A DNA stretch of 32,488 nt from the UHGV virus genome UHGV-0151217. One strand, given 5' to 3'. How positions within the stretch are numbered: the first letter of the stretch is position 1; every line of letters begins with the position of its first letter. The notes below the pieces were generated by a model. The model was given only the letters and a program-made list of their open reading frames with translations, made no database searches and was not told the DNA's origin. The stretch comes from a virus. Below, piece by piece: positions 1,665-15,555 of the stretch. The position numbers and the translations under genes are program-made.

Positions 1665-3706
1665 TGTTTTATTCAGCCAATGAGCTGGCCGGTCTTCCTC
1701 GTTTGCCCGGTACAGTTCAGGGGGTGCGATGGACGCTCAATCGGATCACAGAGACGCACCCGGAATGGAAGCGCAAGCGTGAAGGCACAAAAGCATTCGA
1801 GTATCACATCGACAGCCTGCCCGCTGAAGCGCAGAAAGTTTTACGTAAGCGCCTGACTCATCAGGTCCTGGAAGATGCACAACTGCCCGCCGTGGTTGAG
1901 CAGAAGGCAGTTAAAAACGTCGCCGTTCGCGATGAACTGGAAGTGATGGTCAAATGCCCGGAACTGGCATTACGCGAAGTCCAGGCACTGACCGACAAGC
2001 AAAAGGCCATTGCTGATGCGCGGATATTGCTGGCTACTGAAGTGCATAAACTGCGTGAATACGCCGGAATGACCAGGAAGGCCGCGTTAAAGCACATCGT
2101 TGATGGTGTGCGCATGGGGGCGTTACCTGACCGCATTATCGAAGCAGCGAATACTGCAAATGCACGTCAGGGAAAGCGAACCGGTGTCAGCACCGGCAGC
2201 CTGGATAGCTGGTACTCCAGCTGGGTGATGGCGCGCGGTGATGCCAATCAGTTACTGGCGTTACTGGCTCCCGGTCATCATAAGGGAACTCCGTGGGAGC
2301 AGGTCTGGTGGCTGAGCGATTTCTTTATGTTCTATCGCTCATGGAAGCGCCCGACCGTTGAATACGCTTATCGCGAGTTTTCAGCCTGGTGGCATGAGAA
2401 ACACGCGAATGATGCGGGAATGCTGGCGGCACTGCCTTCAGTTCACGCAGTAAGACGAGTGTTAAGCAGCGTCCCGGTGATTGTTAAGGAGCGTTTCCGC
2501 TCCACAGGTTCAGCCTGGCGTTCGCTCAATCCCTTTGTGCGGCGCGAGTGGACATCATTACCGGTTAATGCGGTATGGGTCGGGGATGGTCACTGTATGA
2601 AAATGACCGCGTTTAACCCCCTGACCGGCAATATTTTCCGGCCAGAAGTGACGCTGGTTATGGATGCGGGGCAGCGCTTTGTTGTGGGCTGGTCACTGTC
2701 CCTGTCGGAAAACGTGATAGCCGTTGCTGATGCGTTGCGTTACGGCATGGCACAGCACGGGATACCGCTGATTTATTATTCCGATAACGGGGGCGGCGAA
2801 AAAAACCGGGTGCTTGATGCCGATATTACCGGGATTCTGCCCCGGCTGGGTGTGGAGCATCACACGGGGATACCGGGTAACCCGCAGGGGCGCGGGGTAA
2901 TAGAACGGGCAAACAAAGGAATACCCAAAGACGTGGCACTGAGTTTCCAGACGTACTGCGCAAAGGATGCAGACAAGGAAACCGTAATGATGCAGCAACG
3001 GATTATGCAGTCGGCCATTAAGGCCACCCACAAAGGGAAAGAACTGACAAAACGGCAGGTTAAGGCGAGGGATGAAATCCCCACCTTTGAGCAACTGATG
3101 GCCGCCATAGAGCTGGAGGTCAGACGCTATAACAACCGGCCACACAGCAGCCTTCCCCGCAAAGAGGATGGCGAATATTACAGCCCGGCAGCGTATCGCC
3201 GGAAACTGATAAAAGAGCAGAATGTTGAAATTGATTTTCTGTCGCAGGAAGAACTGCATGAAATGTTCAGGCCGGAAGTGACGCGCAAAACATTTCGCGG
3301 GGAAATTCAGTTATTCAACAATATTTATTACTCGTATGAACTGGCCGCAGAGCACGGGAATGAAGTCAGGGTCAGTTACGATATTCATGACGCAAACAGT
3401 GTCATTGTCCGTCGGGCTGATGGCTCTTATATCTGCGATGCCATCTGGAACGGCAATAAGGTTGATGCCTTCGCTAAACCAGTTATCGAGCAAAAACTGG
3501 AGAAACGCGTCAGAGGCCGCATTGCACGGGCCACGCAGAAAATCGAAGAGGCTAAACGCGAGCTTACCCCGGCTATTACGCAGAAATCTGAGTTTAATTT
3601 TGGATTTGGTCTGGAGCGCCCGGAGAAAAAGGAAAAAGAAGAACTTTATTTATTCGCATCTGAACGCGAGCGCAATTTAAAGAAAAACGGCACAAACAAC
3701 CGTTAA
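1664..3706 (+). CDS. DDE transposase (MuA-like)
   Basis: 680-aa ORF immediately after ner with a TAATG stop/start overlap. Size and position match phage Mu transposase A. Confidence 0.85.
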   Translation: MFYSANELAGLPRLPGTVQGVRWTLNRITETHPEWKRKREGTKAFEYHIDSLPAEAQKVLRKRLTHQVLEDAQLPAVVEQKAVKNVAVRDELEVMVKCPELALREVQALTDKQKAIADARILLATEVHKLREYAGMTRKAALKHIVDGVRMGALPDRIIEAANTANARQGKRTGVSTGSLDSWYSSWVMARGDANQLLALLAPGHHKGTPWEQVWWLSDFFMFYRSWKRPTVEYAYREFSAWWHEKHANDAGMLAALPSVHAVRRVLSSVPVIVKERFRSTGSAWRSLNPFVRREWTSLPVNAVWVGDGHCMKMTAFNPLTGNIFRPEVTLVMDAGQRFVVGWSLSLSENVIAVADALRYGMAQHGIPLIYYSDNGGGEKNRVLDADITGILPRLGVEHHTGIPGNPQGRGVIERANKGIPKDVALSFQTYCAKDADKETVMMQQRIMQSAIKATHKGKELTKRQVKARDEIPTFEQLMAAIELEVRRYNNRPHSSLPRKEDGEYYSPAAYRRKLIKEQNVEIDFLSQEELHEMFRPEVTRKTFRGEIQLFNNIYYSYELAAEHGNEVRVSYDIHDANSVIVRRADGSYICDAIWNGNKVDAFAKPVIEQKLEKRVRGRIARATQKIEEAKRELTPAITQKSEFNFGFGLERPEKKEKEELYLFASERERNLKKNGTNNR

Positions 3707-10118: not shown

Positions 10119-10145
10119 AGCCCCTGCCTTGCAGGGGCTTTTTTG
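10119..10145 (+). terminator. Rho-independent terminator after gemA
   Basis: AGCCCCTGC-CTT-GCAGGGGCT hairpin followed by TTTTTT. Confidence 0.6.
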
Positions 10146-10207: not shown

Positions 10208-10675
10208 ATGCAGACCTTCAGTGAAACAGATCTTCGCGATGCGCAGGCACTGCTGCCCGATTCCGTGCAGCAACTGATTAGCGTGATTGGCTTCCCCGCC
10301 ATGACCCGGTTGATTCGTTCTTTTGGTGGCGTGACGTTAAGCGGTAAAACCGGCGCACACGCCGAACGTACTGGCGGTGTCCATGCCCTGTTACATGACG
10401 TGCTGACCGAAGACGAAATCAACAAACTGATCCGCTTTCTTGGCGGTGCTCCGTTTTACATTCCCCGTTGCGATCATGCGTTACGTGCTCTGCGTAACGC
10501 CCGTTTTATGGCTGATTTACAGCAGCATATCAGAGACGGATTTTCACACCGGCAGGCGCTGGCACTGCTTTGTCCCCGTTACGGGATTTCAGACCGGTAC
10601 GCATGGCAGCTGATACACCGACGACAAAAACAGACTTCGCTGAAAAGCCCCACCCAGGTGGGGCTTTTTGATTAA
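10208..10675 (+). CDS. Mor/C-family transcriptional activator of late (or middle) genes
   Basis: C-terminal LIRFLGGAPFYIPRCDHALRALRNARFMADL...YGISDRYAWQLIHRR aligns with the Mu Mor/C HTH region (...HLGGGQVYIPRG...). Which of Mor or C it corresponds to is unresolved. Confidence 0.8.
   Translation: MQTFSETDLRDAQALLPDSVQQLISVIGFPAMTRLIRSFGGVTLSGKTGAHAERTGGVHALLHDVLTEDEINKLIRFLGGAPFYIPRCDHALRALRNARFMADLQQHIRDGFSHRQALALLCPRYGISDRYAWQLIHRRQKQTSLKSPTQVGLFD
10646..10670 (+). terminator. Rho-independent terminator at the end of the Mor/C-family gene
   Basis: AGCCCCACC-CAG-GTGGGGCT hairpin followed by TTTTT, overlapping the last codons. Confidence 0.55.
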
Positions 10676-11825: not shown

Positions 11826-12203
11826 ATGTCGGGAAAATTCCGTTTCAGTCAACGTAGCGAGAAAAATCTGGCTGACGTAAAGCCACAACTGGTGGCAGTT
11901 GTACGCCGTGCGCTGGCGTTGTCGGACGTCGATTTTGGTATTACCGAAGGTTTACGCACGAAAGAACGTCAGAAACAACTTGTCGCTGAAGGCAAGAGCC
12001 AGACCATGAACAGCCGTCACCTTACTGGCGATGCCGTTGATGTCGTGGCTTACGTTGGTAGCACTATTTCATGGGACTGGCCGTTATACGAAAAAATCGC
12101 CCGTGCCTTTAAACAGGCTGCCGCAGAGCTGGGTGTCGCCATCGAATGGGGCGGAGACTGGAAAACGCTGAAAGACGGGCCTCATTTCCAGTTAAAACGC
12201 TGA
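11826..12203 (+). CDS. Endolysin, peptidase M15-type (L-alanyl-D-glutamate / D-Ala-D-Ala peptidase family)
   Basis: 125 aa with RBS GGAGGTGA. DVDFGITEGLRTKERQKQLVAEGKSQTMNSRHLTGDAVDV matches the zinc-peptidase (VanY/M15-like) endolysin signature. Confidence 0.8.
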   Translation: MSGKFRFSQRSEKNLADVKPQLVAVVRRALALSDVDFGITEGLRTKERQKQLVAEGKSQTMNSRHLTGDAVDVVAYVGSTISWDWPLYEKIARAFKQAAAELGVAIEWGGDWKTLKDGPHFQLKR

Positions 12204-12216
12204 TGCGGGACGGGTT

Positions 12217-12399
12217 ATGAACAGAAGTCGCTGGCCCCACAGAACGCCACGTAAAGCCGCGCGCTGTGTTCTGGCCCTGTTTCTGATGATGTTGCTTCCG
12301 GTGGGATGCTCAGACATTAACAGAGCGGGCCAGCTGTTTGACGCGGCGGCGCAGGTCTGCCGGATTATTGACGGTATCCGGCAGTGTTCGCAGAACTGA
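12217..12399 (+). CDS. Putative lipoprotein (o-spanin-like)
   Basis: 60 aa with a signal peptide and lipobox (LLPVGC), immediately downstream of the endolysin. Confidence 0.55.
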   Translation: MNRSRWPHRTPRKAARCVLALFLMMLLPVGCSDINRAGQLFDAAAQVCRIIDGIRQCSQN

Positions 12400-12419: not shown

Positions 12420-12626
12420 GTGAGCATTATCAGATTTACAGAATACACAGGTTCAGGAGGTGCTGGCGCTGTCATGGTGCTCGCTGAACGAATCACCCAT
12501 TTTTACCGTCAGTACGGTACACATGATGGCACGGTCATTGAACTGGATACCGGGAAAAACGTATTTGTTCTTGAAAATCCCGACGAAGTTCAGCGCAGGA
12601 TTGAACAGGCTCAGAAGGACACTTAA
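12420..12626 (+). CDS. Hypothetical protein
   Basis: 68-aa ORF from a GTG start. Its stop overlaps the next start (TAATG). Confidence 0.4.
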   Translation: MSIIRFTEYTGSGGAGAVMVLAERITHFYRQYGTHDGTVIELDTGKNVFVLENPDEVQRRIEQAQKDT

Positions 12627-13126
12627 TGGCGTGGTCACAGGATATCAGGGACAAAGTCCGTAACGGGTACATCTTTGACCAGCTTCCGCTGGATATCGTC
12701 GCCATGAAGTACGCCGTGCCGCACGACACCGCGCGGCGCTGGAAAACGCAGGCGATGAAGAACGGCGACGACTGGGACAAGCTGCGGGCCGCGCACGCGC
12801 TCGCCGGTGACGGGCTGGAAAGTGTCGCCCGCACCGTGCTTATCAGTCTGGTGGTGAAGTGTCAGACGACGCTTGAACGGCTGAACCAGAACCCGGACAT
12901 CCCGCCGCAGGAGTCCGTCGAACTGCTGGCGAGTCTGTCCGACAGTCTCAGTAAGGCGGTGGCCAGCAGTAAAAAAATCCTGCCGGAAACCGACCGGCTC
13001 GCCACGGCACTGGAAGTGGTGCAGCGGCTCGGCGCGTTCATCAAGGAGCGTCACCCGACGCAGTATGCCCCGTTTCTTGAGGTGCTCGAAGGCTTCGCTA
13101 AAGAGCTTGAGGATAATTTCAGTTAA
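12626..13126 (+). CDS. Mu gp27-like protein (putative small terminase / DNA-binding packaging protein)
   Basis: 166 aa with RBS GAAGGA, an N-terminal HTH-like segment, and a position upstream of the large terminase. Confidence 0.55.
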   Translation: MAWSQDIRDKVRNGYIFDQLPLDIVAMKYAVPHDTARRWKTQAMKNGDDWDKLRAAHALAGDGLESVARTVLISLVVKCQTTLERLNQNPDIPPQESVELLASLSDSLSKAVASSKKILPETDRLATALEVVQRLGAFIKERHPTQYAPFLEVLEGFAKELEDNFS

Positions 13127-13172
13127 CCACAGCGGCCCGGTTTTCCGGGTCGTCTGATATTCGGGATTTGTA

Positions 13173-13913
13173 ATGCAAAAACAGATTATTGGTAACGCAA
13201 CGTTGTATTGCGGTGATGTTCTTGATGTGCTGCCGGCGTTATCCGAACGTTTTGATGCCGTCATTACCGACCCGCCTTACAGCAGTGGTGGTACACACAA
13301 ATCAGACCGCAGCATGGCCCCTTCGGACAAGTATATCGGTCACACCCAGTATGCCGAGTTCACCGGCGATAACCGCGACCAGCGCAGCTGGGCGTTCTGG
13401 TGTTCCATGTGGATATCTCATGCATTGCACAGGCTGAATTCCGGCGGTTATTTCATGGTGTTCAGTGACTGGCGACAACTACCGGCGCTTACAGATGCAT
13501 TTCAGGCCGGTGGTGTGCTGTGGCGTGGTCTGGTTGTCTGGGATAAAACGCAGGCTTCCCGTGCGCCACACACTGGCTATTTTCGGCATCAGGCCGAGTA
13601 TGTGGTCTGGGGCAGCAACGGAAAACTCGACAAATGCCCGCACGGTGGCCCGTTCCCGGGTGTGATTACGCAGCGTGTCGTCCCGTCCGAAAAACTGCAC
13701 ATGACCGCAAAGCCGGTTCAGCTGATGGCTGAGCTGGTTAAACCGCTGACACCGGATGCGCACGTCCTTGATCCGTTTATGGGAAGCGGCACTACCGCCA
13801 TCCCTGTACTTGCCCGTGGCGGACGGTTTACCGGCATTGAAATGACTAACCAGTATTTTGATATCGCCTGCGCACGAATCGAAAAAGCCCAGACAGAAGC
13901 AGTGCAGGTGTGA
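13173..13913 (+). CDS. DNA methyltransferase (amino-MTase, beta-class: N6-adenine or N4-cytosine)
   Basis: Catalytic motif IV DPPY (ITDPPYSSGG) near the N-terminus and AdoMet motif I (DPFMGSGTT) near the C-terminus. This order is typical of beta-class enzymes such as the CcrM/HinfI type. No adjacent restriction gene. Confidence 0.85.
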   Translation: MQKQIIGNATLYCGDVLDVLPALSERFDAVITDPPYSSGGTHKSDRSMAPSDKYIGHTQYAEFTGDNRDQRSWAFWCSMWISHALHRLNSGGYFMVFSDWRQLPALTDAFQAGGVLWRGLVVWDKTQASRAPHTGYFRHQAEYVVWGSNGKLDKCPHGGPFPGVITQRVVPSEKLHMTAKPVQLMAELVKPLTPDAHVLDPFMGSGTTAIPVLARGGRFTGIEMTNQYFDIACARIEKAQTEAVQV

Positions 13914-13914
13914 C

Positions 13915-15555
13915 GTGGCAAAACGTAAACTTTCCATTAAAGAGTTTCAGAGAAGCCTGCAGGAGTACATCGCCAACCTCCGCCAGACCATCGAGGCTGA
14001 ATGTCTGGGGTTCGATGTTAACCCGCAGGCCACACAGGCCCGCCGGGCGGCAGTCTGCGACCCGGTGACGGGCTACGATTATTTTGTCGAAAATTATTTC
14101 CCGCACTACGTCCGCAACCCGGCAAAAAGTGAGCTGCATAAATACCTGTTCAGCCGTCTGCCACAGGTTGTGGCAAGCCCGGACCCGGAGAACGACGCCA
14201 TCGCCGCGCCCCGTGGTGAAGCAAAATCCACGCTGGTGACTCAGCTGTTTACCCTGTGGACCATTATCCGGGCCATTAAGCATTACCCGGTCATCATTAT
14301 GGACAGTATCGACCAGGCTTATCCGATGCTGGAAGCCATCAAGGCTGAACTGGAGTTTAACCCCCGTTTAAAAAACGATTTCCCGGAAGTGTGCGGGCAG
14401 GGTCGCGTCTGGCGTATGGGGACCATCGTCACGGCCAACAATATCAAGGTGACCGTTGCCGGTAGTGGTAAAAAACTGCGTGGTCTGCGCCACGGCCCGT
14501 ACCGTCCTGACCTGGTTATCCTCGACGATATCGAGAACGACGAGATGGTGCGTAACCCGGAGCAGCGCGACAAGCTGCATGACTGGCTCACCAAAACCGT
14601 GATGCCGCTGGGCGAGGCTGGCGGTAAAACCGATATTATTTATATCGGAACCATCCTGCATTACGACTCCGTACTGTCGCGCACGCTGAATAATCCGATG
14701 TGGAAAACGGCCCGCTTTAAGGCCGTTATTCAGTGGCCTGCCAACATGAAGCTGTGGGACGAGTGGGAAGAACTCATCCGCAACAAACAGCCGGAAGCAG
14801 CGGAGGCACTTTACCGGCAGAACGAAGCCGACATGCTCGCCGGGTCGGTGGTGTCATGGGCGGCGCGTCCCCTGCTGGCGCTGATGAAAATCCGTGTCCG
14901 TGACGGTCACGACACCTTTGATTCTGAATACCAGAACGACCCGGTCAGCGGTGAAGATGCGCTGTTTGCGGGCTGCATTAAGTTCTGGGTTAACCGTCTT
15001 GATGAATGGGTGTTCTACGGCGCTGTTGACCCCAGTCTCGGGAAGAAGAATAAAAACCGCGACCCGTCGGCCATTCTCGTGGGGGGCTTTAACCGTTTTA
15101 CCGGCATACTGGATGTGGTTGAAGCCGATATCCGCCGGCGTCTGCCAGATAAACTTATCGAAGACGTGATTAAGTATCAGCGGGAATATCACTGCCTGTG
15201 CTGGTCGTTTGAGTCCGTTCAGTTTCAGGAGTTTCTGCGTACCGTGCTGGTTGAGCGTTCGGCGGCGCTGGGTGTGCCGGTTCCGGCGCTGCCGGTCATC
15301 CCGCTGGAGGATAAAGCGCTGCGTATCGAATCCCTTCAGCCGCATATGGCCAACGGCCTGATTCGTATCAGCCACACACATCAGACGCTGATTGACCAGC
15401 TGCGCCACTACCCCAAAGCCGACCACGATGATGGCCCGGACTGTCTGCACATGCTGTGGACGCTGGCGGTATCGCGCAGCGCAAAATTTCAGATACACAC
15501 CCCACGCAGCACCGGGCGTGACCGTGGCGGGCGTTTTGGTTCAGGAGGATGGTAA
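13915..15555 (+). CDS. Terminase large subunit (Mu gp28-like)
   Basis: About 546 aa from GTG 13915, immediately after the methylase stop (the ORF is open from TTG 13858). Walker A-like APRGEAKST and acidic nuclease-type motifs. Confidence 0.8.
   Translation: MAKRKLSIKEFQRSLQEYIANLRQTIEAECLGFDVNPQATQARRAAVCDPVTGYDYFVENYFPHYVRNPAKSELHKYLFSRLPQVVASPDPENDAIAAPRGEAKSTLVTQLFTLWTIIRAIKHYPVIIMDSIDQAYPMLEAIKAELEFNPRLKNDFPEVCGQGRVWRMGTIVTANNIKVTVAGSGKKLRGLRHGPYRPDLVILDDIENDEMVRNPEQRDKLHDWLTKTVMPLGEAGGKTDIIYIGTILHYDSVLSRTLNNPMWKTARFKAVIQWPANMKLWDEWEELIRNKQPEAAEALYRQNEADMLAGSVVSWAARPLLALMKIRVRDGHDTFDSEYQNDPVSGEDALFAGCIKFWVNRLDEWVFYGAVDPSLGKKNKNRDPSAILVGGFNRFTGILDVVEADIRRRLPDKLIEDVIKYQREYHCLCWSFESVQFQEFLRTVLVERSAALGVPVPALPVIPLEDKALRIESLQPHMANGLIRISHTHQTLIDQLRHYPKADHDDGPDCLHMLWTLAVSRSAKFQIHTPRSTGRDRGGRFGSGGW

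Follow-up and report, generated by a model that had tools for sequence, protein, structure and literature searches.

A solitary beta-class DNA methyltransferase gene before the terminase gene of Mu-like prophages of Escherichia coli

An optional accessory gene in a Mu-like prophage lineage of Escherichia coli is predicted, from its sequence and a structural model, to encode a solitary DNA amino-methyltransferase of the beta class, whose product is most likely N6-methyladenine. The gene directly precedes that for the large terminase subunit, and we consider it probable, with moderate confidence, that the enzyme performs a late, self-protective methylation of phage DNA before headful packaging, directed against restriction. 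The window, the whole stretch of viral DNA that was analysed (UHGV virus genome UHGV-0151217), is 32,488 nucleotides long, and its locus is 100% identical to a Mu-like prophage that E. coli strain 54214 carries between caiF and carB. The features on which the argument draws are the following.

10208 to 10675, + strand: gene for a Mor/C-family transcription activator, 5' of the lysis and packaging genes and presumed to be the late switch (PF08765 Mor, 1.2e-06; PGAP 'Mor transcription activator family protein')
12626 to 13126, + strand: gene for a gp27-like DUF1804 DNA-binding protein, candidate small terminase subunit (PF08822, 2.4e-52; phrog_756, 2.6e-67)
13133 to 13152, + strand: GC-rich hairpin (CGGCCCGG-TTTT-CCGGGTCG), 7 nt past the DUF1804 stop (fold of 13115-13200: -26.5 kcal/mol, z = -3.1)
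13162 to 13904, + strand: segment present in some prophages and absent from others, made up of an 11-nt leader with a weak GGGA ribosome-binding site and nearly the whole methylase ORF (comparison with UMNF18)
13173 to 13913, + strand: gene for the solitary beta-class DNA amino-methyltransferase, 246 aa, probably N6-adenine (ORF; PF01555; PHROG 67; PADLOC MTase_II; AF2 model with Foldseek; dN/dS)
13269 to 13280, + strand: catalytic motif IV, DPPY (residues 33-36), inside the stretch TDPPYSSG (homologue alignments)
13776 to 13790, + strand: AdoMet-binding motif I, FMGSG (residues 202-206), inside DPFMGSGTT (homologue alignments)
13906 to 13917, + strand: methylase-terL junction, with AGGTG, the ribosome-binding site of terL, in the final codons of the methylase gene, TGA at 13911-13913, one base, and the terL GTG at 13915 (sequence; PGAP terL start)
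13915 to 15555, + strand: gene for the large terminase subunit, terL (phrog_38, 2.7e-144; TIGR01630, 2.1e-25; 64-69% identical to the TerL of SuMu and ST405-OXA48phi1.1)

Family assignment, conservation and predicted structure

The original prediction, made from the letters alone, had placed a 246-aa amino-methyltransferase gene at 13173-13913, and an ORF of that length runs exactly there on the + strand, from an ATG at 13173 to the TGA at 13911-13913. DPPY was said to stand before the FxGxG AdoMet motif, which is what the residue numbers give (33-36 versus 202-206), and the enzyme is assigned to the beta class because motif IV precedes motif I. The predicted class is also recovered by every family model that matches well, namely Pfam PF01555 N6_N4_Mtase (1.7e-24, 87.5 bits against a cut-off of 26.7), PHROG 67 'DNA methyltransferase' (1.4e-53) and the PADLOC MTase_II type II methyltransferase model PDLC03321 (2.4e-65, covering almost the whole protein). 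Among the window ORFs of at least 100 aa, a [DNS]PP[YFW] motif occurs in this one only. RefSeq already carries the protein as 'DNA-methyltransferase' (WP_001171799.1), and it is thus an uncharacterised protein of a well-known kind that is publicly annotated as a methyltransferase. N6-methyladenine is favoured as the product because DPPY and the closest matches are those of adenine enzymes; DPPY is compatible with N4-cytosine as well, and the N4C enzyme 8s9m is among the fold matches.

The family is large, with about 7,500 proteins matching at E <=1e-10, and the catalytic residues are strongly conserved within it. In 40 homologues of 54-91% identity the blocks TDPPYSSG, DPFxGSG, HxTxKP and RxPHxGYFRHQxE are invariant, the invariant positions being T32-DPPY-SSG39, F97/D99-W-R101, W123/K125, R130/P132-H/G135-YFRHQ/E142, K174/H176/T178/K180-P181 and D200-PF/G204-S, so that D200, P201, F202, G204 and S205 of motif I are all included. 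DPPY is likewise invariant in 15 homologues taken from their loci (46-95% identity), two of which have Cys in place of S37, and the motif I stretch aligns with motif I of M1.HpyAVI, M.BceJIV, CcrM and M.MboIIA. The prediction had named catalytic motifs not conserved on proper alignment as evidence against it, and both DPPY and motif I prove to be conserved. The exact protein occurs on 512 contigs and belongs to a 90%-identity cluster of 440 sequences, nearly all of which, among those listed, are full length. Against the E2348/69 allele, the methylase gene has a dN/dS of 0.21 (dS 0.23), compared with 0.10 (dS 0.05) for the DUF1804 gene and 0.04 (dS 0.12) for TerL; it is under purifying selection, yet is the most diverged part of the region.

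In the confident AF2 model (pLDDT 84.7, pTM 0.84) the protein folds into one Rossmann-type domain, lacks a recognition domain of its own and has two loops of low order, residues 37-70 and 126-140. The PDB structures that match it best, every one a beta-class DNA amino-methyltransferase, are CcrM, M1.HpyAVI, M.BceJIV, a rotifer N4-cytosine methylase, TTHA0409, M.MboIIA, M.RsrI and M.PvuII, at 17-23% identity. In Foldseek, CcrM, M1.HpyAVI and M.BceJIV match at E of about 1e-15, and these three together with MboIIA, RsrI and PvuII span E values of 1e-10 to 1e-16 and TM scores of 0.62-0.77 when normalised by query length. M1.HpyAVI is also found at the sequence level (phmmer E 5.6e-14, residues 24-236).

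The resemblance to solved enzymes is one of class. M1.HpyAVI (5hfj), M.BceJIV (8urk) and CcrM (6pbd) share with the window enzyme the motif order, the fold and the lack of a large separate recognition domain, and M1.HpyAVI and M.BceJIV, at 232-283 aa, are also near it in size, but identity to the three is only 21-23%. The description as CcrM/HinfI-like therefore holds for the class and not beyond it: the CcrM equivalog model NF050803, which would indicate a GANTC methylase, scores 51.6 bits against a cut-off of 830 and covers residues 172-241 only, and the C-terminal domain of CcrM, whose solved chains have 350-366 aa, is absent from the 246-aa protein. It likewise falls far below the cut-offs of the YhdJ model and of the model for the plasmid single-strand-specific PRK13699/M.EcoGIX type (NF010253, 76.7 bits against 244). 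M.EcoGII resembles it in being beta-class, prophage-borne, solitary and presumably silent in lysogens (PMC5778455), but has 349 aa and belongs to a different subfamily, with likeness limited to motifs IV, X and I; BLASTP aligns the two in two short segments of 30.8 bits (28% over 64 residues) and 26.9 bits. The window methylase is an orthologue of none of CcrM, HinfI, M.EcoGII or Hia5 (the last is compared below).

Because of the CcrM equivalog score and the 17-23% identity to solved enzymes, neither GANTC nor any other specificity is transferable from a solved enzyme. No characterised close homologue from which a recognition sequence could be taken was found among 120 homologues, whose names are generic throughout, and our literature search returned no activity, target sequence or protection phenotype for the methylase or for any homologue closer than about 23% identity. 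Two other routes to a specificity were tried and set aside. In Burkholderia and Ralstonia the methylase for GTWWAC is encoded on the chromosome, in the trp cluster, and its solved structure, M.BceJIV, shares only some 22% identity with the window protein; simple counts of GATC, GANTC, GTWWAC and other motifs along the window were judged to say nothing about specificity.

Gene order and the late operon

The prophage of strain 54214 carries genes for a repressor, a Ner-like protein, a Mu-type transposase with its AAA ATPase, GemA, a Mor-family activator, two holins and an M15 endolysin, followed by DUF1804, the methylase, TerL, a Mu-type portal, head genes and contractile-tail genes. DUF1804 is the family of Mu gp27. 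The predicted position between a gp27-like gene and the terminase was confirmed on both sides (DUF1804, 2.4e-52, on the 5' side; phrog_38, 2.7e-144, on the 3' side), and the portal gene 3' of terL matches Portal_Mu at 1.6e-95. All neighbours of the methylase gene are phage lysis or packaging genes. The absence of a restriction partner was also upheld, in that the PGAP annotation of the whole identical prophage of strain 54214 lists no restriction endonuclease or nuclease.

Late co-expression of the methylase, as originally proposed, can reasonably be read from the gene order, because the gene has no promoter of its own and stands among close-packed late genes. A strong terminator-like hairpin (10119-10139) precedes the Mor/C-family gene, no sigma-70-like promoter is predicted on the + strand from that gene to the portal gene, and the genes from the holins to the portal overlap or stand a few dozen bases apart at most. 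What is directly seen is thus the placement in a tight lysis-packaging string 3' of the activator, from which expression itself would follow. The spacer between DUF1804 and the methylase is 46 nt long and holds the GC-rich hairpin as well as the methylase ribosome-binding site, which is weak (GGGA, 6-nt spacer) and has the stable hairpin just 5' of it.

At the DNA level the locus had no match in a megablast search of 50,697 phage records, and the lineage is known from prophages only. By TerL, the closest sequenced phages are Klebsiella phage ST405-OXA48phi1.1 (69%), Haemophilus phage SuMu (64%) and the D3112/JBD30-like Pseudomonas phages (61%).

The window stops short of the prophage right end, where Mu carries mom. 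In strain 54214, tail-fibre genes and the gene for a single hypothetical protein of 351 aa, which has no match in Pfam, lie at the right end, and carB comes next, while the related prophage of E2348/69, inserted in eutC, ends after the tail-fibre assembly genes. Neither mom nor com was found at the right end of the complete related prophages, and no Com-like ORF or second methylase was found in the window or in the related Mu-like prophages, that of Serratia included.

An optional cassette in a general accessory site

Among 5,426 complete E. coli genomes, 55 have the locus. The arrangement DUF1804-methylase-terL is found in 35 of them, whereas another 19 have the same prophage minus the methylase, the flanks being about 98% identical and 736 bp closer together; in the remaining genome the match runs only from inside the methylase gene into terL. 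In E. coli UMNF18, a methylase-less case, about 8 nt (tgtatacc) stand in place of the segment 13162-13904 (about 743 nt), and the identity of the flanks is otherwise 98%. Because only this segment is exchanged, while the upstream hairpin and the junction AGGTGTGACGTG are unchanged in the UMNF18 allele, the cassette comprises the ORF and its 11-nt leader, without regulatory sequence of its own. For the same reason we rejected the ideas that the hairpin at 13133-13152 belongs to the cassette and that it acts as a translational switch of the Com type; its stem is also kept, with different loops, in Intestinirhabdus and Buttiauxella. Base composition gave no sign of a recent import, the methylase GC of 0.55-0.57 being the same as that of the flanks.

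The presence/absence pattern also bears on the suggestion that the methylase stands in for the mom gene of Mu. No mom or com lies at the right end of complete relatives, which agrees with it; the methylase is nevertheless not a required substitute, because 19 genomes do without it and the UMNF18 prophage, the one of these that was examined in full, has no mom, com or other methylase. A complementary distribution, with mom where the methylase is absent, was accordingly rejected. The lineage lacks mom with or without the methylase, which is an extra.

The slot between the DUF1804 gene and terL is a general site for accessory genes, since SuMu has nothing there and the Klebsiella phage has three small ORFs; in other genera too it is occupied by the methylase, at 74-80% identity. 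Across phage types, the homologues compared (46-80% identity) lie in the following contexts.

Intestinirhabdus and Buttiauxella Mu-like prophages, 74-78% (TerL 89-91%): order DUF1804-methylase-TerL-portal, with the layout of stop, 1 or 2 nt and GTG kept at the methylase-terL junction
Edwardsiella, 74%: terL about 90 nt downstream of the methylase
Salmonella Mu-like prophages, 61%: flanked by the holin and lysozyme genes
Serratia Mu-like prophage, 61%: final gene, occupying the place of mom at the extreme right end
E. coli HK97-like prophage, 59%: downstream of the lysis genes and immediately 5' of HNH-TerS-TerL
Escherichia phage Chuche and Yersinia and Acidovorax P2/HP1-like prophages, 53-58%: next gene downstream of one for a zinc ribbon of the Mu Com type (PF10122, 7.7e-20; phrog 'gpCom control of modification')
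Thiobacillaceae metagenomic genome with a Mu-type portal, 48%: between a TerS and a TerL of different, non-homologous families, overlapping terL

Each of these contexts is late or translationally gated, as would be expected for a function on progeny DNA.

Proposed function, precedents and alternatives

On the self-protection reading, the methylase would be transcribed during lytic growth only, on a Mor/C-dependent late transcript, and its translation, perhaps coupled to that of terL, would come immediately before that of the terminase. The enzyme would modify the replicated phage DNA, still embedded in the chromosome, before headful packaging, and the virions would carry methylated DNA and hence resist those restriction systems of the next host that recognise the methylated sequence. 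This role would be that of Mom in Mu and of Hia5 and Hin1523 in other Mu-like prophages. We infer anti-restriction protection, which the original prediction had also suggested, from context and precedent. Any benefit would be conditional, because the gene is dispensable and methylase-less siblings persist in 19 genomes.

Several precedents bear on this reading. Mu-like prophages without mom that encode adenine methyltransferases obtain broad protection from restriction enzymes (PMC3299994), and in this group Hia5, Hin1523 (FluMu) and Nma1821 (Pnme1) resemble the window enzyme in coming from a mom-less Mu-like prophage and in being AdoMet-dependent amino-methyltransferases that have DPPY and FxGxG motifs but lack a restriction partner (Drozdz et al. 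2012, PMC3299994). The presumed job, protection of phage DNA against restriction, is common to all of them. These three are, however, Dam-like, with FxGxG first and DPPY near residue 194, occupy the right-end position of mom behind com, and are nearly non-specific (PMC3299994), whereas the window methylase has the opposite motif order, the position between DUF1804 and terL and no Com-like ORF, and so lies outside the Hia5 type. True homologues, 45-58% identical over the full length, solitary and phage-borne, are the Com-coupled methylases of Escherichia phage Chuche, Stenotrophomonas phage Smp131 and the Yersinia and Acidovorax prophages, together with Bpm of Bordetella phage BPP-1. At the prophage end, the gene of each Com-coupled enzyme comes after that of a zinc-ribbon regulator of the Mu Com type, whereas the window copy has no Com and would rely on its late-operon position. 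We found no literature on Bpm, and no characterised member among the Com-coupled and Bpm homologues. As for position, methyltransferase genes are commonly found just 5' of terminase genes, according to the account of Iyer et al. 2013 in PMC6536676. The ParB-Tls locus described there likewise has a modification gene directly 5' of the large terminase gene, in the packaging module, but its 5' neighbour is ParB-like; for that of the window methylase, DUF1804 is the only match, and a ParB domain does not reach Pfam thresholds. The methylase itself carries no ParB fusion.

Two other readings deserve weight, and we regard both as unlikely. In the first, the enzyme would have an epigenetic or regulatory role for the phage itself instead of guarding against restriction: by marking the promoters of the phage, its transposase-binding ends or its packaging site, it would set the timing of late events, make lysogeny more stable or give the signal for packaging. 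The cleavage of the phage P1 pac site is under adenine-methylation control, and such a role for the window enzyme would suit its location immediately before terL, to which it is probably coupled. The layout TerS-methylase-TerL recurs in a distant Mu-like element; moreover, a prophage methylase of B. cenocepacia H111 is reportedly needed for lysogeny of its own phage (bioRxiv 10.1101/2020.03.09.983379). Against this stand the 19 E. coli genomes that have the same prophage and identical flanking regulatory sequence without the methylase, because of which the gene does not appear integral to packaging or lysogeny. The varied positions of the homologues (between holin and lysozyme, at the right end, after Com) speak against a role specific to packaging, and a late-operon gene is unlikely to be expressed in lysogens.

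Of comparably low probability is the second, in which the enzyme would methylate adenines broadly or without specificity, as a beta-class equivalent of Hia5 or M.EcoGII, and its toxicity would account for the consistent confinement of the family to late operons or to Com control. The model has a single catalytic domain, in which only the loops at 37-70 and 126-140 would be available for DNA contact, and Com-type regulators, by which Mu handles its toxic Mom, are coupled to the homologues of 53-58% identity. Non-specific methylases are, in addition, documented in Mu-like prophages and in an E. coli prophage (PMC3299994, PMC5778455). However, PDB descriptions and the literature present M1.HpyAVI (232 aa) and M.BceJIV, beta-class enzymes of similarly small size, as sequence-specific; the likeness to M.EcoGII, which is about 100 residues longer, is at motif level; and Hia5, with its DPPY at residue 194, is of a different class. 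It is a speculative extension, and in our view an improbable one, that this recognition-domain-less family represents a third, independent solution to the Mom problem, in the form of a low-specificity, toxic adenine methylase confined to late operons in Mu-like and HK97-like phages and to Com-type switches in P2-like phages. Where the gene lies between TerS and TerL, such an enzyme might, in addition, work together with the packaging motor.

Far less probable is a substrate other than DNA, either RNA (rRNA or tRNA) or protein. A Stx-prophage 'adenine DNA methyltransferase' has been reported as a 16S rRNA methyltransferase (PMC10810198), M.EcoGII methylates RNA too (PMC5778455), and the window protein gives weak, sub-threshold matches to PF03602, PF01170 and PrmC. 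Its significant family and fold matches, however, are all to DNA methyltransferases, with the RNA and protein families below their curated cut-offs, and the Stx enzyme requires a partner subunit, for which no candidate adjoins the methylase gene. Least credible of all is a decaying or inactive passenger of a defective prophage, a notion that draws on the truncated YmfQ-family gene near the right end of the identical strain 54214 prophage and on the dispensability of the methylase, and that the intact ORF, the invariant catalytic motifs, the purifying selection, the largely full-length 440-member cluster and the conserved slot in other genera contradict.

The general understanding of phage orphan methylases is left unchanged by this gene, which adds one tidy example to it. 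As a compact beta-class enzyme, it could become a reagent if its target proves new or relaxed. Lysogens such as E2348/69 may release phage DNA that bears a methylation mark absent from the methylome of the host. Most useful among the side results are the sibling prophages with and without the methylase, present in 35 and 19 E. coli genomes, respectively, which constitute a natural isogenic pair for measuring what the gene is worth. If the self-protection reading is true, a transposable phage without mom would gain restriction evasion by means of a promoterless methylase ORF set into the short gap before terL.

A variable slot between the DUF1804 gene and terL

In this phage group, the gap between the gp27-like DUF1804 gene and the large terminase gene (terL) is a variable slot for accessory genes, as seen when the gap of the window (13127-13914) is compared with those of Haemophilus phage SuMu (2889-3002 of its locus) and Klebsiella phage ST405-OXA48phi1.1 (2067-2972). 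The methylase-less prophage of E. coli UMNF18 has nothing in this slot, SuMu has a single tiny ORF, the Klebsiella phage has three small ORFs of unassigned function, and the window has the methylase. Both methylase-plus and methylase-less loci have a GC-rich hairpin downstream of the DUF1804 gene, which in the window lies 7 nt past the DUF1804 stop codon:

13133-13152 in the window, 3529-3548 in the UMNF18 locus L003, and also 5' of the methylase in the Intestinirhabdus and Buttiauxella loci: GC-rich hairpin, stem GGCCCGG/CCGGGCC

E. coli, Intestinirhabdus and Buttiauxella all retain the hairpin, and its loop varies (TTTT, ACTC and AACGT). In the latter two genera it is followed by a T-rich tail. 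A role in attenuation or mRNA stabilisation between the DUF1804 gene and terL is possible.

Possible exchange within the methylase and a swapped endolysin

Comparison of the window methylase with the allele of E. coli E2348/69 (L004) revealed a local patch of difference, reading WAFWCSMWISHALHRLNSGGYF in the window versus WAYWSTLWMSGAARLVRPGGYV in E2348/69:

13390-13500: divergent patch in the methylase, residues about 74-110

Synonymous divergence (dS) between the two alleles over the whole gene is 0.23, higher than the 0.05 and 0.12 of the flanking genes. This raised dS suggests mosaic exchange inside the methylase gene. The endolysin has been exchanged between near-identical prophages, being an M15 metallopeptidase in the window (11826-12203) versus a glycoside hydrolase family 108 enzyme in UMNF18 (L003, 2076-2621) and E2348/69 (L004, 19076-19621), and in each case the endolysin gene lies between identical neighbours, the holins on one side and the DUF1804 gene on the other. 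A short ORF lies directly 3' of the window endolysin:

12217-12399: 60-aa ORF, N-terminus MNRSRWPHRTPRKAARCVLALFLMMLLPVGCSD

A Pfam search with this ORF returned no match; it probably encodes a spanin-type lipoprotein, because it starts with a signal peptide bearing a lipobox-like LPVGC.

Right end, GATC content and insertion sites

The prophage of E. coli strain 54214 (L023), to which the window locus is 100% identical, ends on the right in a gene that lies outside the window:

8476-9531 of L023, minus strand: 351-aa hypothetical protein WP_033807280.1

This final prophage gene ahead of carB stands in roughly the same place as mom in Mu and may be an accessory gene; a Pfam search with its product gave no match. 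GATC avoidance is known in enterobacterial phages, and the low GATC content of the 32,488-nt window fits it (36 sites, in a crude count uncorrected for composition, versus about 127 expected from length alone).

The UMNF18 prophage has inserted among the tail genes of a P2-like prophage (L035 and L036): to its left are P2-type baseplate and tail genes, and to its right are genes for tail fibres and sheath. The related prophage of E2348/69 interrupts eutC. These insertion sites fit near-random transposition in the manner of Mu.
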